Sequence record: JN984867
DNA from: Shigella phage EP23
DNA: 44,077 nucleotides
Reading direction: 5' to 3' (one strand)
Shown here: positions 56-39,548 of the stretch, in pieces
Layout of the letters: each line of letters starts with the position of its first letter
Numbering within the stretch: position 1 is the stretch's first letter
Made by a program: the position numbers and the translations under genes
Notes under the pieces: generated by a model
What the model was told of the DNA's origin: nothing
Seen by the model: only the letters and a program-made list of their open reading frames with translations
Database searches by the model: none

Positions 56-628
56 ATGAACAAAAGGGCTTATATCATGGCAGAAATCAAAGTTAAGGGC
101 CGACGCGCCAAACTGGACGGACGAGTAGCAGTAACCCCGCGCCGTAAACCAGGCGAGCAAACCGAGCACACCAATCTTGGACCTGAAATCGAGTACGGAA
201 AGCGCCGTAAAGGCGGCAAATGCGGACGCCCTACTGACTACAGATCCGTTTACTGCGATCAGCTTCGCCGCTATTTTGCCGACGCCGACGCCTGGCAGGT
301 CAACTACTCCGATAAAGGCGCTGCGCAAGTAATCCCCCGCAACAAAATGCCAACCTTCGGCCGATTTGCCGCTGAAATCGGCGTGGGCGTAGCTTGCCTG
401 TATCGCTGGGCGCGTGCGCATGAGGAGTTTGCCGAGGCGATGGCGGACGCAATGGAGTTGCAGAAAACCTTCCTGATGGAAGCTGGCGGCGTGACCATCG
501 CGGCGGGCTTCGCTACATTCCTGCTTAAAGCAAACCACGGCGTCCGCGACGATGTACCGCTGGATGACGACGAAGATGATAACGGCGACGTAGTTGTCGA
601 ACCTTCCGGCAAAGGCCAGGGTGAATAA
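56..628 (+). CDS. terS: terminase small subunit
   Basis: 190-aa ORF; its stop overlaps the large-terminase start by 1 nt. Basic N-terminus, HTH-like segment FGRFAAEIGVGVACLYRWARAHEEF, acidic C-tail. First gene of the packaging module. True start could be M8 (position 77). Confidence 0.7.
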   Translation: MNKRAYIMAEIKVKGRRAKLDGRVAVTPRRKPGEQTEHTNLGPEIEYGKRRKGGKCGRPTDYRSVYCDQLRRYFADADAWQVNYSDKGAAQVIPRNKMPTFGRFAAEIGVGVACLYRWARAHEEFAEAMADAMELQKTFLMEAGGVTIAAGFATFLLKANHGVRDDVPLDDDEDDNGDVVVEPSGKGQGE

Positions 629-2013
629 TGCGTAACTATGCGGCAGAACACCGCGCCCTTGAACGAGCGATCGCAAAGCGAAACAGACCTCCGCGCCCGA
701 CACGCGTTGCGCAGGCTGTCCGCCTTTACCAGCCTGATTGCTTGCCGCACCAGGTTGAACTACTGCGCGACACAAAGACTAAAATCCTCGGCCTGTGTTC
801 CGGCTTCGGTGGCGGAAAGTCGTGGGTAGCTGCGCGTAAGGTCATCCAGCTTCTGACACTTAACCCTGGTTATGACGGCATCGTGACCGAACCGACTATT
901 CCACTCCTGGTTAAAATCATGTATCCGGAACTGGAGAAGGCATTCGACGAGGCTGGCTTCCGGTGGAAGTTCAATAAGCAGGATAAGATCTACAATGTGC
1001 TGGTGAAAGGCAAATGGACACGCGTTATCTGTGAATCAATGGAGAACTATACCCGCCTGATCGGGGTCAACGCCGCGTGGATTGTTGCCGATGAATTCGA
1101 CACTACGAAGCAAGACGTCGCGCTGGCGGCATATCACAAATTGCTCGGTCGTCTGCGTGCGGGCTTCGTCCGCCAGTTCGTCATCGTGTCAACGCCTGAA
1201 GGCTACCGGGCGATGTACCAAATTTTCGAGGTGGAGAAAGACAACCAGAAACGCTTGATCCGGGCGAAGACCACGGACAACCACCATTTACCGGCAGACT
1301 TTATCGACACGCTCCGTAGTCAGTACCCAGCTAACCTGATCGACGCGTACCTGAACGGCCTGTTTGTTAACCTTACGTCGGGCGCGGTATACAAGATGTT
1401 CAACCGCGAGGAGAACGCCAGCACCGAAGAAGTGAAGCCGGACGACACGCTGATTATCGGTATGGACTTTAACGTCACGAAGATGGCGGCGGTTGTGTAC
1501 GTCAGACGGCAGCGAGTCACCGAGAACAAGGAGTTCCGCGACGAGATTCACGCGGTGGATGAATTTGTGGACCTGTTTGACACCCCGGCTATGATTGAGG
1601 CGATAGAGGAGCGCTACCCCGATCATTGTGCTGCCGGTCGTGTTGTCGTTTACCCGGATAGCAGCGGCAAATCCCGCAAGACGGTCAACGCGTCGTCGTC
1701 CGATATCGCACAACTGGAAGATGCGGGCTTCGAGGTGGAGTATGACAGCGTTAACCCGCCTGTGAAAGACCGATTGATTGCGATGAATACGATGATGTGC
1801 AACTCGAAGGGCGTGCGCCAGTATTTTGTCAACCTGGATAAATGCCCTACACTAGCGAAATGTCTGGAACAGCAGGTTTACGACCTGAAGAAAGGCGAGC
1901 CGGATAAAACCGCCGGGGTGGACCACATGAACGATGCCGCGGGCTACCCTATTGCGCACTTGTTCCCTGTGATTCGTCCGATCGCAGTTGTTCCAACTGT
2001 AGACTTCTACTAA
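628..2013 (+). CDS. terL: terminase large subunit
   Basis: 461 aa. Walker A-like GFGGGKSW, Walker B-like WIVADEFD, C-terminal nuclease-type region. Position between TerS and portal. Confidence 0.9.
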   Translation: MRNYAAEHRALERAIAKRNRPPRPTRVAQAVRLYQPDCLPHQVELLRDTKTKILGLCSGFGGGKSWVAARKVIQLLTLNPGYDGIVTEPTIPLLVKIMYPELEKAFDEAGFRWKFNKQDKIYNVLVKGKWTRVICESMENYTRLIGVNAAWIVADEFDTTKQDVALAAYHKLLGRLRAGFVRQFVIVSTPEGYRAMYQIFEVEKDNQKRLIRAKTTDNHHLPADFIDTLRSQYPANLIDAYLNGLFVNLTSGAVYKMFNREENASTEEVKPDDTLIIGMDFNVTKMAAVVYVRRQRVTENKEFRDEIHAVDEFVDLFDTPAMIEAIEERYPDHCAAGRVVVYPDSSGKSRKTVNASSSDIAQLEDAGFEVEYDSVNPPVKDRLIAMNTMMCNSKGVRQYFVNLDKCPTLAKCLEQQVYDLKKGEPDKTAGVDHMNDAAGYPIAHLFPVIRPIAVVPTVDFY

Positions 2014-5925: not shown

Positions 5926-6438
5926 CTACAAACGCATCGGCATGATAACAAGGAAGGCCCCACCTTTGAACGACACACGTGTCGCCTTGTCGACCCCCCG
6001 GAATTCCAGTTTTAAGCTATCAAACTTACGGTCGAACAATTTAGCAATTTTGAAGGCGTCGGATAGGTATGCCCCATTAAACCCGATAGCCTCCACTTTA
6101 GCGCTGGCGAAAGACGAAACTCTACGCCAGTCTGGGAATCGTCCGTCTATGTTCTCTACGGGCAGGGTCCCTATTAATACGTCTTTACTATCAAAGAACG
6201 CTGCGGAGGTGTCGTCAATGTTGCAGTATTCGAATTTAGCAGGTAAGCGGCCTTTAATTGATACTATTTTACTTTCACCTTCGGGAACAACCGCGGACCC
6301 TAAGAACAAACGATGTCCGTCGGAGGCCACAATGAAGCCTTTCTCGTCGAAAAATACACCATTCAGATAGTATCGCACGTCATTAGTTGCGGCGCACATC
6401 ATAGCGGCTTTAAGATCGGCATAGTTAACTTTAATCAT
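5926..6438 (-). CDS. truncated DnaN (beta sliding clamp)-like protein, 170 aa
   Basis: Contains DVRYYLNGVFFD, ASDGHRL, DGRFPDWRRV, IGFNGAYLSDAF and a C-terminal VIMPMRL. These match E. coli DnaN blocks DVRYYLNGMLFE, ATDGHRL, DGRFPDYRRV, IGFNVSYVLDVL and VVMPMRL. Start trimmed from the track value (6492) to the ATG at 6438 (or 6444) behind SD GAGGA. Confidence 0.75.
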   Translation of the reverse strand: MIKVNYADLKAAMMCAATNDVRYYLNGVFFDEKGFIVASDGHRLFLGSAVVPEGESKIVSIKGRLPAKFEYCNIDDTSAAFFDSKDVLIGTLPVENIDGRFPDWRRVSSFASAKVEAIGFNGAYLSDAFKIAKLFDRKFDSLKLEFRGVDKATRVSFKGGAFLVIMPMRL

Positions 6439-6467
6439 TATCATTTCCTCGTTGTTGGTGTGCAACC

Positions 6468-6497
6468 AATATAATGCAACCAACATCTGCAATGCAA
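6468..6497 (-). promoter_or_regulatory. sigma70-like promoter for the antisense island
   Basis: On the minus strand: TTGCAT-18 nt-TATATT. TTGGTTGCA boxes abut both sides of the -10, giving TATATTGGTTGCACACCAAC, which nearly repeats at 39515-39534. Confidence 0.55.
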
Positions 6498-12050: not shown

Positions 12051-12323
12051 CAAATCGGGACAGGCGGGACGTCCCGATTTATCCCGTTCTGTCCCGCACA
12101 TCTAAAAACTGCATATTTACCCACTACGATTGCATAAACTAAAAGCGGGACAGGGGTGCTGTCCCGATCTGTCCCGCCCCTCAAAAGTGAATGGCTATGC
12201 GGTTTTTCTGCATAAAACAAACGGGACAGAAAGCGGGACAGAATGAGGCGGGACAAAGCGGGACAGCACCCCTGTCCCAGTCAGTGCTGCCGCGGGTTTT
12301 GACCGATCGGGACAGGCGGGACA
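12051..12323. repeat. array of GCGGGACA boxes (module 1)
   Basis: GGGAC starts at 12057, 12066, 12147, 12223, 12235, 12250, 12260, 12309 and 12318. GTCCC lies at 12071, 12091, 12161, 12171 and 12274. The 19-bp palindrome GGGACAGCACCCCTGTCCC is at 12260-12278 and its reverse complement at 12147-12165. Confidence 0.85.
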
Positions 12324-12377
12324 ACTCCCAGTCTTTCAGACTAGACGGGGGTCAGCGGCCCCCCTCGTCTGAGACTG
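12308..12377 (+). repeat. 70-bp element, copy 1 (identical to 39263-39332)
   Basis: cgggacaggcgggacaactcccagtctttcagactagacgggggtcagcggcccccctcgtctgagactg. Compared base by base with copy 2: 70/70 identical. Confidence 0.95.
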
Positions 12378-12446
12378 AATAAGGTTTGTTTTAAATTCGC
12401 TGATACAATGACCGACGGCAACTGCATAAAAAAGGGGGACTGCATA

Positions 12447-15089
12447 ATGGCAGATCAGGCAGCGGGCATCACGCTCAAGGCGGACGTCGCGCAAATTAAA
12501 ACGGCTAATACTGTGCTGGACACATTTGCGCAGAAATCCGAGAACACAGAACAGAAAGTAAAGAAATTAAACGACACCCTCGGCAAGTCGAAAAAGGTTA
12601 CTGGCGACGCCGCGGGCGGAATGGAAAAGTTAGCGACTGAATCGCAGCGTGCCGCCGATGGCATGACGAAACAGGAGCGACTCGCCAGCCGATTAGGCAT
12701 GTCGACCAAAAACCTGGGATTCGCATCGCGGAACGCCGCATTCCAGTTACAGGATATTGCGGTGACGCTTGAGATGGGTATGCCGGTGCACCGCGTTATG
12801 CTTCAGCAGTTACCGCAGCTTACTGGGGCGTTTGGCGGACTGGGTAACACGCTGCGATATGTTGCGGGCTTTCTCGGCCCAGTAGGGATCGGCCTTTCAG
12901 CATTAACGGCGACGTTAGGCGTAGGGGTGGCAATTACGACCCGCGCAGAGAACCAGGTGGCGGCGCTTAATAAGACGCTGGCGCTGTCCGGTAATATTTC
13001 AGGCCTCACAGCTAACCAGATCCTTGTGCTGTCCGAGAACGCCGAGCGCATGGGCGGGTCATTTCGCAAGACGCGTGACACAATCCAGGCGCTGGCGGCG
13101 GCGGGTGTGAAAGCGGGTGGTGACTTCGGCGCATTGGCTAAGGTAGTTAATGACTTTGCGAAGGTGTCCAGCCAGCCGATCGAGGATGTGGTAGCGGCGG
13201 TGGCGAAGCTGTCAACAGACCCCGTTGGCGGACTGCGTGCGCTGGCGGATAAGTATCACGTCGTAAACGAAGCGCAGATCCAGCAGGTACAGTCGCTCGT
13301 TGATGCGGGTCGTGAGACAGACGCGGTTGCGTTGGCTAACAAAACAGCCGCTGCGTCGTTCACCAGCATGACCAATGAGATCAAGGCGAACATGGGTACG
13401 CTTGAGCGATCTATGAACGTCGTCACATCGGCAGCCAAATCAATGTGGGACGCCATCCTGGATGTGGGCCGCGCGCAGTCCTCCAATGAGTCCGAGATGA
13501 AAGCGCGCGAATCACTACAGCGCATGACCACGGCTTACTATGCCGAGATGAAAGCGGTAAACGCTGCCGGTGGGGTAATGACTGAAGCGCAGAAAGCACG
13601 TATTAACATGCTTTACAGCGAACTGGTCGCCCAGGAAAAAGTGGTGGCGTCGCTCACCCTGCGTAACCGTGCTGAGCGAGACAACGCCCGCGCCGCAGAC
13701 GAATCCGCAAAGGCGAACGAGGAGGCCAACCGCACCGCCCGCGACCGCGCTGCGTTCGAGAAGGAGTACGCAACTAACGCGAAGAAGCGCGCCGACGAGA
13801 TCGCCCGCCTCAATTTGCTGAATAAGCGCGGCGTTATTGATGAGAAAGAGCTTGCCGAGGCGGTGAAGCAGGTAAACGAGCGTTATAAAGACCCCGCCCC
13901 GAAGAAGGCCGCCGCTGTACGAGTCGATGCCGGTATGAAAATGCTGGAAGTCGCACGGAGCGAACTGGCCCAGCTTCGAGAATCCGGCAAGCAGATCGAA
14001 GCCAACGCGTCTACGCAGACCCGCACGCAACGCGCTCAAGCGGCCTTAAACAAGCTGATCGCCGACAATGAGCAGTTAATCGCGGCGAGCAAAGAAAGGG
14101 CGCTAACGGCAGCAGAGAAGCAGCAGATGGTAGAATTCGGACGCGTGAAGGAAGTGCGCGAGCAGATTGTCGAAGAAGCCAAACTACTGGACGCGAAAGA
14201 GAAGCAGGTTAAGGCGCACGCGCAGATCGACGCCTTCGTTAAGAACCAGAATGCCGAGCTAAAAGCCACCGCGGCGGGCTATGCGCTTTCTACTCGAGAA
14301 GCGGCAAACCTGCGTGAAGAATTGCAGCTAATCGACCGCCTGAAGCGTGTAGGCGCTAACGATACCGATATTGACAAGGCGGTGTCTAAGCTGCGGGAAG
14401 TGCAGGAGGCGCAGACCGGCGCTAACGCCTCGCTATGGGATGGATTCAGTCGCGGGCTTAAGGATAGCGTGGATGAAATGGGTAACGGATATACGCAGAT
14501 GGCGTCGCTCACGAAATTCACGTTCAGCGCTATGCAGGACACAATGAACGAGTTTTTCGAGACGGGCAAGTTGAACGCAAAGGATATGGTTAAATCCATC
14601 CTGAGCGAGTTAATCAAGCTGGCTACCTCGCAGGCGTTCAAGTCTATCGTTAGCGCTTTCGGTGGTGACGGCGGCAAAAACGGATTGTTCGGCGCTATCT
14701 TCTCTGGCCTCACTAAGAATGCGGACGGCGGAGCGTACGCAGGAGGCAATCTCGCGGCCTATTCGGGGAAAGTGGTAAGCCAGCCTACCTTCTTTAGTTA
14801 TGGCGTCCAGGCGTTCGCTAAGGGTGCGGGATTGATGGGCGAGGCTGGACCAGAGGCCATCATGCCACTGAAGCGCGGGCCGGACGGGAAACTGGGCGTT
14901 GCCGCGTCGGGCGCAGGCGGTGGTATGGTCGTGACGACTAACGTTTACACGGGGACTGGTAAAACGGATACCAGTGTCAGCGGGCCGGACCCCCGTACTG
15001 CGCAAGCGTTCGGCAAGCAAATCACCGAGGCGGTGAAGGCCGAGATCGTGAAAGCGACGAAACCGGGTGGTGTACTTTACAAACGATGA
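12447..15089 (+). CDS. tape measure protein
   Basis: 880 aa, long Ala/Gln/Lys-rich helical protein downstream of G/GT. Start trimmed to the ATG at 12447 behind GGGGGA. Confidence 0.9.
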   Translation: MADQAAGITLKADVAQIKTANTVLDTFAQKSENTEQKVKKLNDTLGKSKKVTGDAAGGMEKLATESQRAADGMTKQERLASRLGMSTKNLGFASRNAAFQLQDIAVTLEMGMPVHRVMLQQLPQLTGAFGGLGNTLRYVAGFLGPVGIGLSALTATLGVGVAITTRAENQVAALNKTLALSGNISGLTANQILVLSENAERMGGSFRKTRDTIQALAAAGVKAGGDFGALAKVVNDFAKVSSQPIEDVVAAVAKLSTDPVGGLRALADKYHVVNEAQIQQVQSLVDAGRETDAVALANKTAAASFTSMTNEIKANMGTLERSMNVVTSAAKSMWDAILDVGRAQSSNESEMKARESLQRMTTAYYAEMKAVNAAGGVMTEAQKARINMLYSELVAQEKVVASLTLRNRAERDNARAADESAKANEEANRTARDRAAFEKEYATNAKKRADEIARLNLLNKRGVIDEKELAEAVKQVNERYKDPAPKKAAAVRVDAGMKMLEVARSELAQLRESGKQIEANASTQTRTQRAQAALNKLIADNEQLIAASKERALTAAEKQQMVEFGRVKEVREQIVEEAKLLDAKEKQVKAHAQIDAFVKNQNAELKATAAGYALSTREAANLREELQLIDRLKRVGANDTDIDKAVSKLREVQEAQTGANASLWDGFSRGLKDSVDEMGNGYTQMASLTKFTFSAMQDTMNEFFETGKLNAKDMVKSILSELIKLATSQAFKSIVSAFGGDGGKNGLFGAIFSGLTKNADGGAYAGGNLAAYSGKVVSQPTFFSYGVQAFAKGAGLMGEAGPEAIMPLKRGPDGKLGVAASGAGGGMVVTTNVYTGTGKTDTSVSGPDPRTAQAFGKQITEAVKAEIVKATKPGGVLYKR

Positions 15090-24904: not shown

Positions 24905-24934
24905 ACTATAGTGCAACCAACCTATTGGTTGCAA
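24905..24934 (-). promoter_or_regulatory. sigma70-like promoter overlapping a perfect inverted repeat
   Basis: On the minus strand: TTGCAA-18 nt-TATAGT. The plus strand carries TGCAACCAA-ccta-TTGGTTGCA (24912-24933). Confidence 0.55.
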
Positions 24935-26570: not shown

Positions 26571-26599
26571 AATATAATGCAACCAATATGCTTATGCAA
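26571..26599 (-). promoter_or_regulatory. sigma70-like promoter
   Basis: On the minus strand: TTGGTTGCAT (-35 TTGCAT)-17 nt-TATATT, with a second TTGGTTGCA abutting the -10. Confidence 0.6.
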
Positions 26600-26604
26600 C
26601 CAAT

Positions 26605-28851: not shown

Positions 28852-29110
28852 CCAATAAATCGCAGTCGGATATGTTGTCGATAACGCGAACGTCAGCACC
28901 GCGGCGGGCCATTCGCTCATGTTCACGTACCTGGTGCGGCTTCGGTTTTCCTCCGGGGCGCTTCACTTCGACGAACACTATTTTGCCGTTGATGATAATA
29001 ATCAGGTCGGGCGCACCTGCGCGCCCCTCCCATGCCAGTTTTCGGCAGAATCCGCCAACATCTTTCACCCGTCTCATCAGGTGGCTTTGAATCTTGCCTT
29101 CTGGTGTCAT
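28832..29110 (-). CDS. VRR-NUC domain nuclease
   Basis: 92 aa. GAPDLIIIINGKIVFVEVKRPGGKPKPHQVREHERM matches the VRR-NUC core (D...EVK). Its ATG overlaps the polymerase stop by 1 nt (TAATG). Confidence 0.8.
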   Translation of the reverse strand: MTPEGKIQSHLMRRVKDVGGFCRKLAWEGRAGAPDLIIIINGKIVFVEVKRPGGKPKPHQVREHERMARRGADVRVIDNISDCDLLVAELVA

Positions 29111-32100
29111 TACTTGCGGTAGCGATACATGCAATCGCCCTCTGCGGCAAGTGGGAAGCCTTTCGCCCAAACCGGCAGGTCGCACATCAGCGCGCACAAC
29201 TCCTCGGTTGTGTAGTCGTCGGTATCCGGCACTTCGGTTATCAGCTCATCGTGTACGGAAAGTACGATCTCATACCCCGCAGCTTCAACGCCAGGCATGG
29301 ACCATGCGAGAATATCGCGGCACAACGCCTGTACGATGTTTTCCGTCAGTTTGCCGCCGTAGGTATACTGGAATCCCCACTGGCGCGTCGTCTGATTCTC
29401 GCCCTGATATTTAATGCGTGTGCTGGTGCGCTTCTTGCCGGTGTCTTCGTCGATCTCGGTCGTGACAGACAGCGCGATGCCAGGGTAGCTCATGATGCGC
29501 CCTGACGGCAACTCAATTTTAAGCCACCACCCCGCCGCGTTCGGGTCGTCGCGCTCCTCGTCGAAGGTCGGGTCATGCTTCGCCTTCGTTCGAACAATTT
29601 TGAGCGCTTTCCTGCCATCCGGGCGAACGTTCGCGCCAGCCCAGTACGCTTTGCCCGGATTGCGGATCGCGCAGAGCACCGCGTCCTCCAGTTCGGCCCA
29701 AAAGGCTACCGTCATCGGGTGAGACTCACGCCACATACGTTTGATCGCGTCACACGTCAGCCACACGTTTTTCGGCAGTATGTAAGTTGGGCGCTCGTCT
29801 TTCTTGCCAGGCTTCGGCGGGCGCTTCTCCTCGTTAATGCGAGCGTACTCATAACCCCGCTTCGCCGCCGCCCAAATGTGATCCGGGAATGTGCCCTTCA
29901 TGACGTCAGCCATAGTGTAAAGGTCGAGGCCCAGGTTTTTAGCGAACTGCAAGAACGCCGCGACGCCGCCACCATAGCCCAGGCCAAGCTCGCAGTTATG
30001 CGCCACCAGAAAACCAGACTTAGACGCAATAAGGAACCGGTTTCCGTCTTCCACATCAATCAGGTCGTAAACCGGCTCGCAATAGGTTAACTTCCCGTTC
30101 CAGTTCAGCAATGCGGGTAAGGGCTTCATCGTACTTTCTCTGAAGCTCGGGCACGCTGCGCCGGTTACGGCAGTTTTCCGAACGGCTGACAAACCGAAGG
30201 TTTCCAGGCTCATAGTCGCCGTCTGTATCGATCCTGTCCATTTCGAAGTCTGGCTTATCCCAGCCGTCCAGCGTTTGAACGTAGAGAAGAAACGACCTTT
30301 TATCTCTCTTCCATTCGTCACATACGGCAATCCCACGACCGCCGTAGTTTTTATACCCTTTGGCGCGGGGGTTTGTCGTTCGTGATATTGCCGCTGACAG
30401 CCGGTTGAGTAGCCGCGTTCTGTGCGCATCGTCTGGCATTGCGTCATCGTAGCAAAAATACTGTTTACGATACCGCTTTGTCGCTTCAATTGCGCAGAGG
30501 TTGCATTGGGATGTTTTACCCCTTCGGACGTTGTCATACCCGACGCGTCCTGGCATCGCTCCGCAATCACATTGGGCCAGCAGTTGTCTGTGACCCTGTC
30601 GTTTTGGTAATTCGCGCAGGATAACCAGGCGTCCATACCTCTCGCCAGGGCGCGGACCATCGTGCACCTGTCTGAAACGAGTTGCCTTGCCTCCTTCCAT
30701 GAATGCGTCAAGATTTTGTGGTCTTCTGTCATCAAGACCCCGTCCACGTCTATCACTGGTTTCCACCCCATAAGGTGCGCGCCTTTTGTACTCACCCATT
30801 TTTCGCCGTTCCATACTTTATCCGTTGATGTTACGGCCATAATATCCTTGAACCCGCCATTGGTCAATACTTGGGTATGGCGGTGCAAGCAAGCCTTACC
30901 GATCTGGCGTAAGTCCTTGCGGTTGGCTTTAATGTAATCCGGGTCAAGGCCGAACATCTTACCGGCAGTCTCGCAATAGATATCGCGACCGGCCTTAAAG
31001 ACCATTAACGCTGTTTTCTCGCCAGCGATCCAGGCAAGTCCACGCCCTTCCACATTGGAGTAGTCCGCTACGACAAACTTCTTGCCCTTCGCCGGAATAA
31101 TGCACCCGCGAACGGTCGAGGCCGTTAGCTTCGATATGTCATACGCCCAGTGTGCGGTCCCGCGTAACAGGGAGTTGATGCCGTTGGTGAGCATGTGCGA
31201 CCGGACCCAAAACGAGACGTCGCTTTCACCCTCGCGGCGTTTAATCTTCCCTTCGTGGTCGTCGCTGTACTCGCCACGCGCCAGGTTTTGAGGCTGGAAG
31301 CCTTTGCCCGCCCAGCGCAGCGTGCGCTTTGCGCCGCCATACTGAAGACACCCACGGCGGCGACCATCTGCGGATAAGCCGTTAACTAGCGGATTGTACT
31401 TAGTCGATGCCGTTGATGACGCCCCGAGGCGCATTTCGATAAGCGCTTTGCCTTCGTCGGGGAAGTCCGGGTCTTCAAGCAGGTCGTTAAGCGTGGATTT
31501 CTGCGCGTTGTGGATCGTGAACGCCGGGGCGATATCACGCAGGATTGGCAGGAAGTCATTGCCTGTCAGCTTACCGCCAAATCGCTCCCAGGCTTCTTCC
31601 TTCAATTCTTCCTTATGCGCCTGCACCGCTTTGATCGCGGCGTTCGCCAGGTCAACGTCGACGTAGAAGCCGCGGTCGTTAATCAACTGGTCGATGAGCA
31701 GGATTTCATCTTCCTTAGGCGAGTTTCCCCAGTCCGGTATGCGCCAGTAGACTTCACGCATTGCGATAATATCCAGCGCGGCATAGCGCAGAAATTTGGC
31801 CCATTCTTCCGGGTGAGTCTCGCGAGTGTAGCGGCGGATTTTGTAGGTCTTAGGGGTAGGCTTACAGAATCGGTTAATCAGCGCCTTGCCTGCCTTATCC
31901 TTCGCGTGCTCTGCGTCAACGCCCAGAACCTGGCACTGCATATCGAGGCTACCGGGCAGCGCGTGGCGAAAGGCCATAATCATAGTGTCTTCGATCTGGC
32001 TTACCGGCAGGTCAATACCCCACTTCTCGCGGATAACCAGGCGGTCAAACAGGAGGCCGTTAGCCATCACTATTTTAGCCTTCTTGCGGGATACCCGGCG

Positions 32101-32298
32101 GAGCGCCTTGCGCAGTTCACGCGGCATTGTGGGGGATTCAGTGGCATCCCATGTCTGCACGCGGCCCTCGTCTATGGCGTAGGTGCAAATCATAATCTCT
32201 GTGGTTGGGTGCTCCGCGTAGGCGTACGCCCCAACTTTCTTCAGGTCCACCCCGCTAAATGTCTCGGTGTCGAGAAACAGGCGTTCGAAGTCTTTCAT
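29110..32298 (-). CDS. family A DNA polymerase precursor with 3'-5' exonuclease domain, interrupted by an intein
   Basis: Exo I FLDTETFS. Polymerase motif B is split as RQIGKA|C...HN|CELGLGYGGG. Exteins are 30892-32298 and 29110-29994. Confidence 0.9.
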   Translation of the reverse strand: MKDFERLFLDTETFSGVDLKKVGAYAYAEHPTTEIMICTYAIDEGRVQTWDATESPTMPRELRKALRRVSRKKAKIVMANGLLFDRLVIREKWGIDLPVSQIEDTMIMAFRHALPGSLDMQCQVLGVDAEHAKDKAGKALINRFCKPTPKTYKIRRYTRETHPEEWAKFLRYAALDIIAMREVYWRIPDWGNSPKEDEILLIDQLINDRGFYVDVDLANAAIKAVQAHKEELKEEAWERFGGKLTGNDFLPILRDIAPAFTIHNAQKSTLNDLLEDPDFPDEGKALIEMRLGASSTASTKYNPLVNGLSADGRRRGCLQYGGAKRTLRWAGKGFQPQNLARGEYSDDHEGKIKRREGESDVSFWVRSHMLTNGINSLLRGTAHWAYDISKLTASTVRGCIIPAKGKKFVVADYSNVEGRGLAWIAGEKTALMVFKAGRDIYCETAGKMFGLDPDYIKANRKDLRQIGKACLHRHTQVLTNGGFKDIMAVTSTDKVWNGEKWVSTKGAHLMGWKPVIDVDGVLMTEDHKILTHSWKEARQLVSDRCTMVRALARGMDAWLSCANYQNDRVTDNCWPNVIAERCQDASGMTTSEGVKHPNATSAQLKRQSGIVNSIFATMTQCQTMRTERGYSTGCQRQYHERQTPAPKGIKTTAVVGLPYVTNGREIKGRFFSTFKRWTAGISQTSKWTGSIQTATMSLETFGLSAVRKTAVTGAACPSFRESTMKPLPALLNWNGKLTYCEPVYDLIDVEDGNRFLIASKSGFLVAHNCELGLGYGGGVAAFLQFAKNLGLDLYTMADVMKGTFPDHIWAAAKRGYEYARINEEKRPPKPGKKDERPTYILPKNVWLTCDAIKRMWRESHPMTVAFWAELEDAVLCAIRNPGKAYWAGANVRPDGRKALKIVRTKAKHDPTFDEERDDPNAAGWWLKIELPSGRIMSYPGIALSVTTEIDEDTGKKRTSTRIKYQGENQTTRQWGFQYTYGGKLTENIVQALCRDILAWSMPGVEAAGYEIVLSVHDELITEVPDTDDYTTEELCALMCDLPVWAKGFPLAAEGDCMYRYRK
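29995..30891 (-). mobile_element. intein (299 aa) in polymerase motif B
   Basis: Block A CLHRHTQVLTNGGFKDI, block B LMTEDHKILT, C-terminal blocks VYDLIDVEDGNRFLIASKSGFLVAHN followed by the +1 Cys. Boundary codons checked on the sequence: 30889-30891 = Cys, 29995-30000 = His-Asn, 29992-29994 = Cys. Confidence 0.85.
30056..30814 (-). CDS. HNH-family homing endonuclease-like ORF nested inside the intein in the -1 frame
   Basis: Motifs GERYGRLVIL, CDCG...QCNLC, YKNYGGRGIAVCDEW, MDRIDTDGDYEPGNLRFVSRSENCRNRR. 30814 is the maximal ORF start. The ATG at 30700 (214 aa) lies just before the conserved core. No clear SD at either start. Confidence 0.7.
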   Translation of the reverse strand: MERRKMGEYKRRAPYGVETSDRRGRGLDDRRPQNLDAFMEGGKATRFRQVHDGPRPGERYGRLVILRELPKRQGHRQLLAQCDCGAMPGRVGYDNVRRGKTSQCNLCAIEATKRYRKQYFCYDDAMPDDAHRTRLLNRLSAAISRTTNPRAKGYKNYGGRGIAVCDEWKRDKRSFLLYVQTLDGWDKPDFEMDRIDTDGDYEPGNLRFVSRSENCRNRRSVPELQRKYDEALTRIAELEREVNLLRAGLRPD

Positions 32299-33198: not shown

Positions 33199-33263
33199 TT
33201 TCCAATTCCTCATTTTCACATGTATCGGGGTTATTGGAAGCCACCCCGTTCGGCTTGGTTGCT

Positions 33264-33292
33264 AATTTACTTGGTTGCGCCTGAGCGGTCAA
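33264..33292 (-). promoter_or_regulatory. sigma70-like promoter for SSB/polymerase genes
   Basis: On the minus strand: TTGACC-17 nt-TAAATT, with GCAACCAAG in the spacer and AGCAACCAAG just after the -10. Confidence 0.5.
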
Positions 33293-36480: not shown

Positions 36481-36810
36481 ATGAATATCAACGACGCAAT
36501 CGAAATGCTAACGAAGACTGTCTGCAGTGAGACTAGCCGGTCCTGGGCGTATACCGATGCCGTGGGGGCGGTGCTATTTGAAATCGAACGTCTGCGACTT
36601 ACCGAAAAAGAATTGCGCGCGAAGCTGGAATTACTCAACGGTACGGCAGCCAGCAAGCTGCAAAAGCACAATGAAGAAATGGAAGAATACAAAAAACAGG
36701 TTATCCGTTTGCGCGCCGAGGGAAAATCCTGGGCGATGATCGCTGAGTTGACAGGAATTAATCAGAGCACCGTGCGCTCCTGGGTACGCAATAACAAAAC
36801 TTCGAAGTAA
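36481..36810 (+). CDS. HTH DNA-binding protein (109 aa)
   Basis: C-terminal helix-turn-helix KSWAMIAELTGINQSTVRSWVRNN. First gene of the rightward early operon. Confidence 0.6.
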   Translation: MNINDAIEMLTKTVCSETSRSWAYTDAVGAVLFEIERLRLTEKELRAKLELLNGTAASKLQKHNEEMEEYKKQVIRLRAEGKSWAMIAELTGINQSTVRSWVRNNKTSK

Positions 36811-36820
36811 GGCAACGGCA

Positions 36821-39085
36821 ATGAGCTTAATTAAATTCGCTGTAACACGACCCGCTAAAAAAGGCGAAAAAGCCAGGGCGGAAAACTTCCAGATGACCAC
36901 CGATGAATTTTTCGAATTTATCAATGACGCGAAAGAAATATCATCGGTGCATATCAACAAGACCGAGGATAAAGCGGAGTATGCGCGCCGCAAGCGTAAG
37001 GCCGATGGCATCGTAGCGTATACCAGTGACGGCTTACGCCGCAAGACCAGCGCGGTGGACCGCTCGATCCTGTTCTTTGATATTGACCGCACCGACACTC
37101 GCACCTTACGCCGCTGCCGTAAGGCGTTCATTGACGCGGGTCTGGAACACGTATTCCACACAACCACCGGCGACCGCCACCCGCTTAAAGGCGGCACGCG
37201 TTGCGCTCGCTTCCTGGTACTCACTGATAAGCCGGTCCCGGCTGAAGACCTGGGCCGTGTCCAGTATGCGCTATTACATCAACTTGGTCTGTCGGATGTG
37301 GACTTCGACGATTGCACGAAAGACACAAACCGCCTGATGTACCTGCCGCACCAGCAATCGGTTATTAAGTGCCACTACGGCAAACGTGCCCGCGTCCGTC
37401 GTCTGCTTCGCCTGGCGGATACGCTTGGCGTGGAGAAGGAAGAAGTACGCCGCGAGCTTACCCAGGGCGACGACGCAGTGGCGGACGGGATTCTGGACTG
37501 GTGCTTCCAGGCAGGATTTGAGGAGTTATCTTCCGGTCGCGGTTATGAAGTGCCATGCCCGAACGAACATCTGCACAGCGGCGAAGGGTCGACGGCTATC
37601 ATGGTCAAGGATGGCGAGATCCGTTTCAAGTGTATGCACACAGGCAACGAGTGTTGCTCTGAGCTAAATAGACACCAGCACCTGGCGCTACGTCTTATCG
37701 GGATACCGGACCACCTGAACGTCGAGCCGCACAACATGTCGCGTAAGCAAATCGCCGCCATCCTGCCAGGTCTGGACGACGAGGAAGTCGAATCCTTATA
37801 TGATCATATTGTTGATGCAGTTGGCGACGGCGAAGAATACGGCGTGTGCACCGATGCGGATCTGGATAACGAGCCGGTCGCACTATTCAGTAAGCACGAC
37901 CCGATCATCGAAGGCCTGGTCAACTTCAAATCGACCTGGTACATGGCTGGCGAGTCGAACATCGGTAAATCGTTCTACGTGCTGGGCCAAATGGGCGCGG
38001 TTGCCGCGGGGATTCCGTTCGGCGGTGCGAAGGTCGTCCAGTCTCATTGCTTCTATTTCGACGCGGAAGGTGGCGAAGCCTCCAACCAGCGTAAGGAAGC
38101 ATTGCAGATCAAATATGAGCACGACCTGGACAAGCTGCACATTATTGACCTGCAATCACGCGGCTGGGATATCACCAGCAAATCAGGCTTGCGTGAAGTT
38201 ATCAGCTTCATCAACCGCACCGCTAACGGCGAGCCGGTTGGCCTGGTGGCGTTCGACTCACTCAACCAGACTGTTGCGCTGCGGTCCGCCGATGCAAAAC
38301 CGTTCGACGAGAACAACGCCAGCGATATGGGCGAAGTGGTCAAAGCGCTGAAGGCCATTGCGGAAAATACAGGCGGCAGTGCGGGCGTCATCCACCACCC
38401 GGCGAAAGGTGCAAACGGCCGCAGATCTCCCCGTGGGTCCGGCGCGCTGCATGGTGCTGTCGATTCTGCGTTCTTCCTGGAGCAACCGGACGACAACCAG
38501 CCAGGTCAATTGAACCTGTATCACGAAAAGGCACGTAACGGCATCAAGCAAGCGCCGCGCGGCTTCGTCCTGCTCAAGTGCAAGGTTAAGGTGGATCTCC
38601 GCAAGTCCGAAGCGTTCGAAGCCCACCAGTCCACCAGCACCGGGCCAGACTTCGGCGATGTGGTTGCCGGTTGGGACGTCAAACCAATTGCGTCCACCCC
38701 GCGCGACGAGACTCTATACCTCGTACCGGTAGCCCTGGCACCGTTCGCGATAGAACAGGCGAAGGCGGCGGGCAAAGCCGCAGTTAAGGAAGAGAACACC
38801 GCCGGTCCGCGCAACGAAAAAGAGAAAGTGCTTTATGCGGCCCTGGAAAAACTGATGGCAGATAACCCTGACCATACTGGATTCAGTAAATCGGCAATTG
38901 TACGCCAGGCGGGACTCGCTAAGGGTGGCACTTCGACGAAGGCAATCGACGATATGGTCGAGCGCGGCGTGATTGGTTTCTATACAGACCCGCACACCGG
39001 GGCCATATATGGGTCGTCGAATTTAGTCATCAAATCGGAGATCCCCATAACGCTTTCGGCGACCGATGACGACCTGAAAGACTAA
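36821..39085 (+). CDS. primase-helicase (N-terminal primase/polymerase-like domain, zinc finger, RepA/DnaB-like ATPase)
   Basis: 754 aa. LFFDIDRTD, CPNEHLH...CMHTGNECC, Walker A GESNIGKS, Walker B VAFDSLNQ. Confidence 0.8.
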   Translation: MSLIKFAVTRPAKKGEKARAENFQMTTDEFFEFINDAKEISSVHINKTEDKAEYARRKRKADGIVAYTSDGLRRKTSAVDRSILFFDIDRTDTRTLRRCRKAFIDAGLEHVFHTTTGDRHPLKGGTRCARFLVLTDKPVPAEDLGRVQYALLHQLGLSDVDFDDCTKDTNRLMYLPHQQSVIKCHYGKRARVRRLLRLADTLGVEKEEVRRELTQGDDAVADGILDWCFQAGFEELSSGRGYEVPCPNEHLHSGEGSTAIMVKDGEIRFKCMHTGNECCSELNRHQHLALRLIGIPDHLNVEPHNMSRKQIAAILPGLDDEEVESLYDHIVDAVGDGEEYGVCTDADLDNEPVALFSKHDPIIEGLVNFKSTWYMAGESNIGKSFYVLGQMGAVAAGIPFGGAKVVQSHCFYFDAEGGEASNQRKEALQIKYEHDLDKLHIIDLQSRGWDITSKSGLREVISFINRTANGEPVGLVAFDSLNQTVALRSADAKPFDENNASDMGEVVKALKAIAENTGGSAGVIHHPAKGANGRRSPRGSGALHGAVDSAFFLEQPDDNQPGQLNLYHEKARNGIKQAPRGFVLLKCKVKVDLRKSEAFEAHQSTSTGPDFGDVVAGWDVKPIASTPRDETLYLVPVALAPFAIEQAKAAGKAAVKEENTAGPRNEKEKVLYAALEKLMADNPDHTGFSKSAIVRQAGLAKGGTSTKAIDDMVERGVIGFYTDPHTGAIYGSSNLVIKSEIPITLSATDDDLKD

Positions 39086-39173
39086 ATCCTATTTTGAGTG
39101 TTTTTAGCTGGTCGCATTGGTTGCCGTGCAGTATAAATATAGTGAATAGTTATGCAATAAAACTGCATAAAGT

Positions 39174-39278
39174 AAGCGGGACAAAAAGCGGGACAAACTT
39201 GGGGCGGGACAAAGCGGGACAGCACCCCCGTCCCGCCCCGGATGACGCGGCCTGGAGAGGAGCGGGACAGGCGGGACA
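39174..39278. repeat. array of GCGGGACA boxes (module 2)
   Basis: GGGAC starts at 39178, 39190, 39206, 39216, 39264 and 39273. GTCCC lies at 39230. 39204-39234 matches 12248-12278 at 30 of 31 positions. Confidence 0.85.
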
Positions 39279-39332
39279 ACTCCCAGTCTTTCAGACTAGA
39301 CGGGGGTCAGCGGCCCCCCTCGTCTGAGACTG
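39263..39332 (+). repeat. 70-bp element, copy 2 (identical to 12308-12377)
   Basis: 70/70 identity by direct comparison. Confidence 0.95.
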
Positions 39333-39491
39333 CATAAAATCCGGGATTGCAAAATACACGGCAGCACATTGGAAATCGCGGTCGTCGATGAACTGGGCAA
39401 CCAATGCGAGTTGCAGAATGTGGTGTGAAAAATGCAGTTTGCAGTCACAGCTGATAGCGATCAACTTTTTCATGCGCATGATTAATATTGG

Positions 39492-39520
39492 TTGCATTCA
39501 TGCCAGCACCCTGCTAGATT
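39492..39520 (+). promoter_or_regulatory. sigma70-like promoter
   Basis: TTGGTTGCAT (-35 TTGCAT)-17 nt-TAGATT, followed by GGTTGCACACCAAC (the same post -10 sequence as at 6468), then SD GAGGG and the ATG at 39549. Confidence 0.6.
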
Positions 39521-39548
39521 GGTTGCACACCAACATGAGGGCTGAACA

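Follow-up and report, generated by a model that had tools for sequence, protein, structure and literature searches.

Why does a phage genome of 44 kb keep two arrays of short repeats, and what is the function of the array that directly follows its primase-helicase gene? The window analysed here, the whole 44,077-nucleotide stretch of Shigella phage EP23 (JN984867), is a complete or near-complete Dhillonvirus genome, that is, an HK578/SO-1-like siphophage of E. coli, and its gene order is that of HK578 and SO-1. One array (module 2) separates the replication operon from the rightward small-gene/lysis operon, and the other (module 1) is found inside the structural operon, just before the tape-measure gene (Table 1). 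Searches with the two module regions gave 157 and 155 phage records with 80-99% identity, each with about two matching places. Comparison with relatives and analogy with studied replicons indicate that module 2 (39130-39366) is probably the iteron-type replication origin of this phage. GC and AT skew track gene orientation only and are uninformative on the origin.

A sequence-only reading of this DNA had described 39174-39332 as a diverged copy of 12219-12377, and a global alignment, in which 139 of 161 columns are identical, bears this out. The forward boxes have the same order in both, with CGGGACA starting at 39177, 39189, 39205, and 39215 (spacing 12, 16, 10) in module 2 and at 12222, 12234, 12249, and 12259 (spacing 12, 15, 10) in module 1, just as that reading had it. 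It was also right about the box doublet (CGGGACA at 39263/39272 and 12308/12317), the divergence of the spacer 39237-39261 between the modules, and the identical 70-mer, which at 12308-12377 and 39263-39332 is the longest exact match. The palindrome is likewise present in both modules as the 19-nt GGGACAGCACCCC(C/T)GTCCC; the string originally given for it lacks one C and is found nowhere. The window contains 22 copies of CGGGACA, compared with 6.1 expected and a largest count of 10 in 100 shuffles, and 17 of the 22 copies fall in the two module regions. The pairing of the repeats is already on record, as GenBank entry GQ502199 (Sodalis phage SO-1) marks as mutually similar a region A before the tape-measure gene and a region B after the helicase/primase gene, with direct, inverted, and palindromic repeats. 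In the Dhillonvirus genome papers that we examined, we found nothing on an origin, iterons, repeats, or promoters.

Table 1 Features of the window that bear on the two repeat modules
Feature	Position	Strand	Remark
Terminase to tail genes	56 to ~23.6 kb	+	
Terminase genes	56-2013		
Extra inverted box clusters of module 1 (two)	12056-12096 and 12146-12176	.	
Module 1, before the tape-measure gene	12188..12377	+	TGAATGGCTATGC + CTGCATAAA, four forward boxes (12221-12265), palindrome (12260-12278), spacer, doublet (12307-12323), hairpin (12329-12377)
Leftward replication/nucleotide block	23.7-35.4 kb		
Small HTH protein gene	36481-36810		In the rightward operon
Primase-helicase gene	36821..39085	+	754 aa, in the rightward operon
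AEP prim-pol domain	residues ~1-200		Fold predicted; invariant D87xD89, H120
Cys/His zinc motif	residues ~246-279		
RepA-like RecA-type helicase	residues 357-531		Pfam AAA_25
Disordered linker	residues ~647-659		
C-terminal ~94 residues	38801..39082	+	Predicted winged helix, proposed GCGGGACA-box reader
AT-rich, least stable segment	39130..39175	.	Directly 5' of the boxes
AT-rich motif TGAATAGTTATGC(A)	39143-39156		
CTGCATAAA	39163-39171		Degenerate second copy of the AT-rich motif
Four forward GCGGGACA boxes	39176-83, 39188-95, 39204-11, 39214-21	+	
Box 4 + inverted box (GTCCCGC, 39230-36)	39214..39236	.	Palindrome GCGGGAC-AGCACCCCC-GTCCCGC
GC-rich spacer	39237..39261	.	Among the most stable 1% of 30-mers
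Box doublet	39262..39278	+	GCGGGACA at 39262-69 and 39271-78
Imperfect palindrome, 49 nt	39284..39332	.	
ACACGGCAGCA motif	39356..39366	+	Kept 3' of the hairpin in all module-bearing lineages
Small genes, lysis genes, genome end	3' of primase-helicase		
Sigma-70-like promoter, TTGCAT-17 nt-TAGATT	39492..39520	+	Direct reading; heads the downstream small-gene/lysis operon

Module 2 comprises six forward boxes and one inverted box within 39176-39278. The array begins 91 nt 3' of the primase-helicase stop codon, and the boxes are irregularly spaced at 9-16 bp. The 30-mer 39130-39159 is 80% AT with a dG of -30.4 kcal/mol (the genome 99th percentile being -34.7), and the AT-rich motif with its TGAATAGTTATGCA pair is unchanged across lineages, whatever the box type. 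The segment 39130-39175 is a candidate unwinding element and/or operator. That the 30-mer of lowest stability in the region lies directly next to the boxes counts for an origin, whereas the location of the AT-rich segment to one side of the array, not between opposed iteron sets, and the one-way orientation of most boxes count against it. In module 1, each extra inverted cluster is followed by a TGCATA/TGCATAAA pair. We set aside a reading of TGTGAATAG/TTATGCAGA as DnaA boxes (7-8 of 9 positions by eye), because the motif resembles an inverted repeat of TG(A/C)ATA(A/G) and is present in Kagunavirus promoter spacers. The overlapping open reading frames 39094-39327 (+) and 39082-39279 (-) were rejected as protein-coding genes, since the modules differ by single-base indels and the box region has been replaced wholesale between lineages while the layout was kept.

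For comparison, relatives were collected by a search with the primase-helicase alignment, which gave 50 IMG/VR loci, and eight further contigs were added (loci are numbered with L below). The same layout was found after the primase-helicase stop codon even in lineages whose protein is only 37-69% identical to that of the window: the AT-rich invariant motif is followed by three to four direct boxes, an inverted box, a spacer, a doublet, the long hairpin, and the ACACGGCARCA segment, and the placement of the array is the same in more than 20 related loci. What changes is the 7-8-bp box, of which there are 12 lineage-specific types: GCGGGACA in Dhillonviruses, down to the 68%-identical L018; GTGTGGCA in L202 and L204; GTGTGCCA in L203; GGTGCCA in L205; GGGGAGA in STP-1 (L004), L021, and L050; GGGGATG in L048; TCCGACA in L026, L035, and L047; AGGGATA in L027; CGGACAA in L028, L030, and L032-34; ACTCGCAA in L206; GTGCGGAA in L208; and GGGGATC in L209. 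In STP-1, 7 of the 12 genomic GGGGAGA copies lie in 13168-13318, with 3.3 expected genome-wide, and STP-1-like loci have two boxes 5' of the AT-rich segment. Constant across lineages are the ACACGGCARCA segment, the TGAATAGTTATGCA pair, and a promoter further downstream that has TGTTGGCTGC or ATTGGTTGC as its -35; ACACGGCAGCA lies within the stretch of about 100 bp in which the lineages become similar again 3' of the variable cassette. Inverted boxes are separated by anything from 0 nt (CGGGACGTCCCG in L017/L018) to 12 nt, which fits a duplex site and not an RNA hairpin, so that this variation favours a duplex protein site at that position. No module follows the primase-helicase gene in L022-25, L029, L031, L207, and Kagunavirus XY2, which have a plain terminator and a convergent gene instead; in these relatives, either the origin must be elsewhere or the module must be non-essential. 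A scan of the collection with CGGGACA-N5-CGGGACA proved unspecific, with mostly chance matches among the matches listed, and was discarded.

Which protein reads the boxes? The sequence-only reading had suggested a regulatory system with its own recognition protein; a reader can indeed be proposed, but it would be no separate regulator, as the predicted reader is most likely the C-terminal winged-helix domain of the primase-helicase. In the sequence comparisons, box type tracks only the last ~95 residues of this protein. Between L028/L030 (CGGACAA) and L004/L021/L050 (GGGGAGA), residues 1-600 are 92-99% identical and residues 601-660 are 90-97% identical, whereas the last ~95 residues are just 42-45% identical. 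Similarly, L035 (TCCGACA) is 98-100% identical to L032-34 (CGGACAA) up to residue 600 and 46% identical in the C-terminal domain, and between L047 and L050, identity is 96% for the helicase and 54% for the tail. Conversely, the highest C-terminal identity (64-82%) was found in pairs that have the same box on different backbones. Judged from such domain swaps in 92-100% identical backbones, the repeat sequence and the C-terminal domain appear to be a matched specificity pair.

Physical linkage favours co-inheritance of the two, as the boxes come directly after the C-terminal domain; the sharp left boundary, seen repeatedly, and the conserved AT-rich segment that separates the two make pure linkage less likely. 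In three of the four backbone pairs, DNA identity falls about 330-345 nt before the stop codon (the fall is more gradual in L047/L050), partly recovers right after the stop codon, over the conserved AT-rich segment, and is low over the boxes and hairpin (+60 to +230). It is back to 73-95% at +231 to +340 in L047/L050 and L030/L004, and the genes further downstream show unrelated mosaic patterns. Tail and boxes, together with the hairpin, thus seem to co-vary across an intervening conserved segment, which is hard to explain by linkage alone. We also carried out a forward test with seven relatives picked solely for a differing C-terminal domain and with P0012 (L204), whose recognition helix matches that of one of them. 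The boxes differ in six of the seven, the seventh (L207) having no module after the gene, and the box of L204 is the box of its recognition-helix match L202. The other nearby DNA-binding proteins do not track the box type and are therefore not the readers: the Cro-like HTH protein encoded upstream (the STP-1 protein) is 98.6-100% identical in loci with three box types and just 39% identical between L026 and L047, which have the same box, and the HTH_23 protein is 49% identical between HK578 and the window, where the boxes are the same.

The primase-helicase belongs to PHROG 3228, 'replicative helicase-primase'. The folds of its N- and C-terminal domains are predicted, and the recognition helix begins ...KGGTSTKAIDDMVERG... 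in the window. The first residues of helix 3 vary among the natural domain/box pairs (GGTSTK, GGDRYK, GGRRRP, and others). AAA_25 was the sole match in a Pfam search, and a PDB sequence search with the whole protein gave no match; in a PDB-sequence profile search, RSF1010 RepA came first, with a weak score (E=0.066). Since Foldseek returned nothing at E<=0.001, with the P4 alpha domain absent among the matches listed, the winged-helix match of the modelled C-terminal domain is generic. A word-indexed protein search with the C-terminal fragment alone found two proteins, and the full-length query was used instead.

The 49-nt palindrome consists of a small hairpin, AGTCT-TTC-AGACT, a G-run/C-run hairpin, GACGGGGG-TCAGCGG-CCCCCCTCGTC, and a distal arm, GAGACTG, and its DNA fold has a z of -3.2. 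We collected 29 Dhillonvirus copies with the 5' arm as the search pattern, so that this arm is invariant by construction; the 3' arm is altered in only 4 of the 29 copies, and the 7-nt loop has at least 9 variants. Across lineages, the hairpin varies in sequence but retains its structure. Four stem types are found in the small hairpin (AGTCT/AGACT, CTCCT/AGGAG, TCATC/GATGA, and TCCTC/GAGGA), all fully complementary, with compensatory changes at all five pairs, and the G-run/C-run hairpin is always 3' of it. The hairpin type goes with the box type, as L035 has the L026/L047 hairpin on an L033-like backbone, and in some lineages the hairpin loop contains an inverted box. By analogy, the hairpin may be a priming or melting signal like those of IncQ plasmids and pRN1.

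The arrangement resembles several known systems. In SaPI5, PriRep5 is a fused primase-helicase whose C-terminal winged helix binds iterons immediately 3' of rep (PMC9371898). The likeness to the phage, whose winged helix is predicted and whose self-loading is proposed, includes the flexible C-terminal winged helix, the short (5-6 bp) iterons directly 3' of the protein's own ORF, the variation of both iteron sequence and C-terminal domain between elements, and the self-loading of the helicase (PMC9371898). However, SaPI Reps are AAA+ SF3/SF6 helicases, whereas the phage protein is RecA-type and RepA-like (Pfam AAA_25), and SaPI iterons are opposed around a central AT-rich region, whereas the AT-rich segment of the phage is 5' of the whole array. 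The phage also differs in its single inverted box, with most boxes one-way, in the long conserved hairpin after them, and in the host element, here a lytic 44-kb phage with a second module copy. In P4, the alpha polypeptide unites primase and helicase with a C-terminal winged helix that binds the repeats of the origin (PMC4234260). In the same way, the phage polypeptide combines primase, helicase, and a predicted origin-binding domain, and both genomes have two separated repeat regions with the same iteron, in the phage at 12056-12377 and 39176-39332. In work by Ziegelin and Lanka, type I iterons are reported for both ori and crr of P4, and crr reportedly has to be present in cis. To our knowledge, no conserved long hairpin is known in P4. 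The enzymes differ as well, since alpha has a Toprim primase and an SF3 helicase (PMC4234260) and the phage protein has a predicted AEP fold and a RepA-like AAA_25 helicase.

The oriV of RSF1010 contains iterons, GC-rich DNA, and then hairpins, which are single-strand initiation signals for the primase (PMC8567376; PMC4234260). This IncQ plasmid shares with the phage a RepA-type helicase and a RepB'-type AEP primase (the AEP fold being predicted in the phage). RSF1010 uses three separate proteins (RepA, RepB', and RepC), whereas the phage has one polypeptide with a winged-helix tail and 7-8-bp boxes. The iterons of RSF1010 are 20-22 bp long and are bound by RepC. Its two ssi hairpins are on opposite strands, whereas the phage has one palindrome of ~49 bp as a candidate priming site. 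The replication proteins of pRN1 (ORF904) and Bordetella phage BIP-1 each combine an AEP prim-pol and a helicase with a C-terminal winged helix, and a large stem-loop directly 3' of the gene is the proposed or demonstrated origin (PMC4234260). These have an SF3 helicase and no iterons, whereas the phage hairpin is preceded by an iteron array. In lambdoid phages, the DNA-binding domain of O and its iterons, beside an AT-rich region, form a specificity cassette that is exchanged between phages. Unlike here, the iterons of lambda are inside the O gene, and O is neither a helicase nor a primase and recruits the host DnaB through P. Because helicase or primase classes differ and the proteins are fused rather than separate, the analogy with SaPI, P4, and IncQ is one of mechanism and not of family membership.

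Of the two roles that the sequence-only reading had considered for module 2, iteron-type origin and late control region, the comparative evidence favours the first. Transcription control is the main rival, weakly supported and in our judgement unlikely. Here, the boxes at the early/late boundary would bind a protein, possibly the primase-helicase tail, and would act on start, termination, or anti-termination of transcription, module 2 for the lysis/structural genes and module 1 for the tape-measure/tail genes, with the hairpin as a terminator or RNA-processing site. The positions of module 2 between the replication and small-gene/lysis operons and of module 1 before the tape-measure gene suit such a role, and so would an operator function of the TGAATAGT-type invariant motif, which lies in sigma-70 promoter spacers of Kagunavirus XY2; a terminator before the tape-measure gene, however, would cut off essential tail genes. 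The box palindromes are auto-annotated as 'terminator' in HK578 and CS16, and a weak U-rich tail, TTATTCATT, follows the hairpin in STP-1-like lineages, whereas no T tract follows the Dhillonvirus hairpin, the next letters being CATAAAATCC in module 2 and AATAAGGTTTG in module 1; a Rho-independent terminator, that is, a GC-rich hairpin with a direct T tract, was rejected in both modules on this ground. Neither a consensus sigma-70 promoter nor an intrinsic terminator was found by scanning 39130-39340, the terminator scan of the + strand of 12180-12380 gave no site, module 1 likewise showed no consensus promoter, and the sole match of the promoter and terminator scans at the boxes is a minus-strand reading of the 12146-12166 palindrome. 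It also argues against transcription control that the nearby dedicated DNA-binding proteins do not track the boxes and that the proposed reader is part of a replication enzyme. Such control and an origin are compatible, as promoter-rich intergenic DNA is a frequent place for origins.

The primase-helicase tail could also bind the boxes outside any origin, for autoregulation, copy control by module pairing (handcuffing), or tethering, which we regard as improbable. The coupling of box and domain indeed speaks for recognition and not for initiation, a multimeric protein could bridge two distant arrays, and the relatives without a module must start replication elsewhere. However, most lineages have one array only, so pairing would not be the ancestral role, the boxes are flanked by an easily melted AT-rich segment and a conserved hairpin, and in the studied helicases with a sequence-specific winged-helix tail (SaPI Rep, P4 alpha, and pRN1 ORF904), the sites are the origin (PMC9371898, PMC4234260). 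A structured RNA transcribed from the module, such as an mRNA 3' stabiliser, an RNase III site, or a small RNA, seems very improbable. While 39160-39345 folds more stably as RNA than shuffled sequences do (z -2.8), the stems covary, and the G-run is always on the top strand, the covariation of the hairpin equally fits DNA hairpins or a cruciform, inverted boxes only 0-2 nt apart in some lineages allow no RNA hairpin loop, and direct repeats of a 7-8-mer spaced by roughly one turn of the helix are typical of protein sites on duplex DNA; Rfam 15 gave no match at the gathering score in the whole window. The least probable explanation, and a most remote one, is a packaging (pac) site or other terminase recognition repeats: small-terminase binding sites are also typically short repeated boxes, but the module is far from the terminase genes, the arrays are 27 kb apart, and box type tracks the primase-helicase tail and not the terminase genes.

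Thus, an iteron origin at module 2 remains our preferred explanation; comparison across lineages shows that the layout is conserved and that box, C-terminal domain, and hairpin type are coupled, and from this we infer the following course of binding, loading, melting, priming, and origin activity. The GCGGGACA boxes would be double-stranded DNA sites for the C-terminal winged-helix domain, and the flexible linker from the ring helicase would allow several domains of one oligomer to occupy irregularly spaced boxes. Binding would concentrate the enzyme beside the easily melted 39130-39175, where it could load itself. After unwinding, the 49-nt palindrome may form hairpins on the single strands, which would be a possible start signal for the AEP primase of the same enzyme. 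Module 1 (12056-12377) may be a second origin or a cis helper site like P4 crr. Indirect, independent support for the origin comes from the Dhillonvirus HK578, in which mutants that escape OLD map to gp46, the helicase-primase, and to its promoter; defence proteins can sense hairpins formed by origin iterons, and the study behind these mutants (bioRxiv 10.64898/2026.07.10.737580) proposes that OLD recognises such hairpins at iteron origins. A more far-reaching version, which we consider possible yet doubtful, is an IncQ-like pathway within one protein, in which the winged-helix tail would read the iterons, the RepA-like ring would melt the AT-rich DNA, and palindrome hairpins on both strands would be sequence-specific start signals for the AEP primase; the second copy in Dhillonviruses would then make two cooperating origins or a pair like ori and crr, with gene conversion keeping the copies alike, and the same hairpins would be sensed by OLD/Lamassu-type defences in HK578.

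As for the history of the two copies, STP-1 has no module before the tape-measure gene; therefore, module 2 appears to be ancestral and module 1 a Dhillonvirus-specific duplicate. Thirteen genomes that have both copies were compared; the two 70-mers match exactly in two of these genomes, the window and one IMG/VR contig, and differ in loop or linker in the remaining ones. The doublet has two forms (8- or 9-bp spacing), and each was seen in both modules across genomes, which suggests repeated exchange between the copies. In EE09, module 2 has no inverted box, spacer, or doublet, apparently lost by recombination between two CGGGACAGCACCCC stretches, and module 1 is intact, indicating that the phage can do without this part of module 2, at least as long as it has module 1. 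The loss counts against an origin at module 2.

The repeat regions themselves were already in GenBank; the conserved layout, the lineage-specific boxes, and the named candidate reader are new. They concern the PHROG 3228 family (Dhillonvirus, Cornellvirus-like phages, and related Guernseyvirinae of E. coli and Salmonella), which is without a mapped origin. Dhillonviruses and related phages are common in therapy and in BASEL-type collections. A predicted reader of ~95 residues with a 7-8-bp code in 12 natural variants offers a ready specificity table for DNA recognition by winged helices. For phage engineering, our results show which intergenic DNA should be left intact and offer potentially orthogonal origin/initiator pairs, and they give the proposal of OLD-type hairpin sensing a defined target in HK578. 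The promoter that the sequence-only reading placed at 39492 is real as a sequence match (TTGCAT-17-TAGATT), and it is a member of a genome-wide TTGGTTGC promoter family (17 occurrences compared with 2 expected) that is separate from the box system.

TTGGTTGC is a recurrent motif of the window, present 17 times where 2 would be expected, and its copies often stand between genes as tandem pairs separated by 14-31 bp (see table). Several copies build sigma-70-like promoters, in which the first copy supplies the -35 element TTGCAT and the second adjoins a -10 element of TATATT, TATAGT or TAGATT, and some sites are followed by the inverted repeat TTGGTTGCACACCAAC immediately 5' of the ribosome-binding site. 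The set has the appearance of a family of phage promoters/operators under a putative regulator. Phages resembling STP-1, a relative with GGGGAGA boxes, carry TGTTGGCTGC in place of TTGGTTGC.

Upstream of the boxes lie TGAATAGTTATGCA, which resembles an inverted repeat of TG(A/C)ATA(A/G), and a degenerate second copy; this pair is constant across lineages that differ in their boxes and HTH proteins. The related GTGAATAGT lies within the spacers of sigma-70 promoters in the Kagunavirus XY2. TGAATAGTTATGCA may be read by a host factor, by a conserved phage regulator, or by the helicase through single-strand contacts. On the 3' side of module 1, an extended -10-like TGATACAAT is followed by two copies of CTGCATAA, the second of which overlaps the ATG of the tape-measure gene; these elements suggest that tape-measure and tail expression downstream of module 1 would be under separate control.

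Coordinates of the motifs and reading frames
Feature	Sequence	Position	Strand	Remark
TTGGTTGC sites	window	6462-6483, 24913-24932, 26579-26603, 28848, 33255-33278, 36283, 39117, 39397, 39488-39526, 40073, 42491		
TGAATAGTTATGCA and degenerate second copy	window	39143-39171		module 2
TGAATAGTTATGCA and degenerate second copy	window	12188-12216		module 1
TGAATAGTTATGCA-type motif sites	L005 (related phage)	2455-2500, 6050-6120		
TGATACAAT	window	12401-12409		extended -10-like
CTGCATAA, two copies	window	12422-12447		on both sides of the tape-measure ribosome-binding site
DNA polymerase ORF	window	29110-32298	-	1062 aa
Nested ORF	window	30056-30814	-	inside the polymerase ORF
Module 2 with deletion	phage EE09 (L200, OR756193)	31450-31960	reverse	

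Phage EE09 carries a natural deletion within module 2 that removes the inverted box, the spacer and the doublet and joins box 4 directly to AGCACCCC and the hairpin; its module 1 is complete. The spacer between palindrome and doublet contains TGATTTATAAGGAG (or TTTATAAGG) in many sister lineages (loci L202, L203, L205, L206, L209 and L028), and neither module of the window has this motif, which may be a host-factor (IHF-like) site.

The closest database record, PQ843332.1 (Escherichia phage P-GXEC-L2P5; matches H1 and H81), shares 99.7-100% identity with the module. At 88.6 kb it is double the size of a genome of this genus and has 5-7 matching places; it probably represents an assembly that is concatenated or chimeric. 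Cornellvirus-like primase-helicases of the GGGGAGA type (P0028-P0104) have many times been deposited as 'AAA family ATPase [Salmonella enterica]'. Their source is 41-44-kb contigs in assemblies of bacterial isolates; whole phage genomes therefore accompany cultures of Salmonella, a hint that the phages may persist in a carrier or episomal state.

The DNA polymerase ORF encodes 1062 aa in the window and in SO-1, against 763 aa in HK578. In the SO-1 record the insertion is annotated as a group I intron that is self-splicing and contains a nested ORF. The long frame nevertheless runs without interruption, and both an intein and an in-frame intron are possible.
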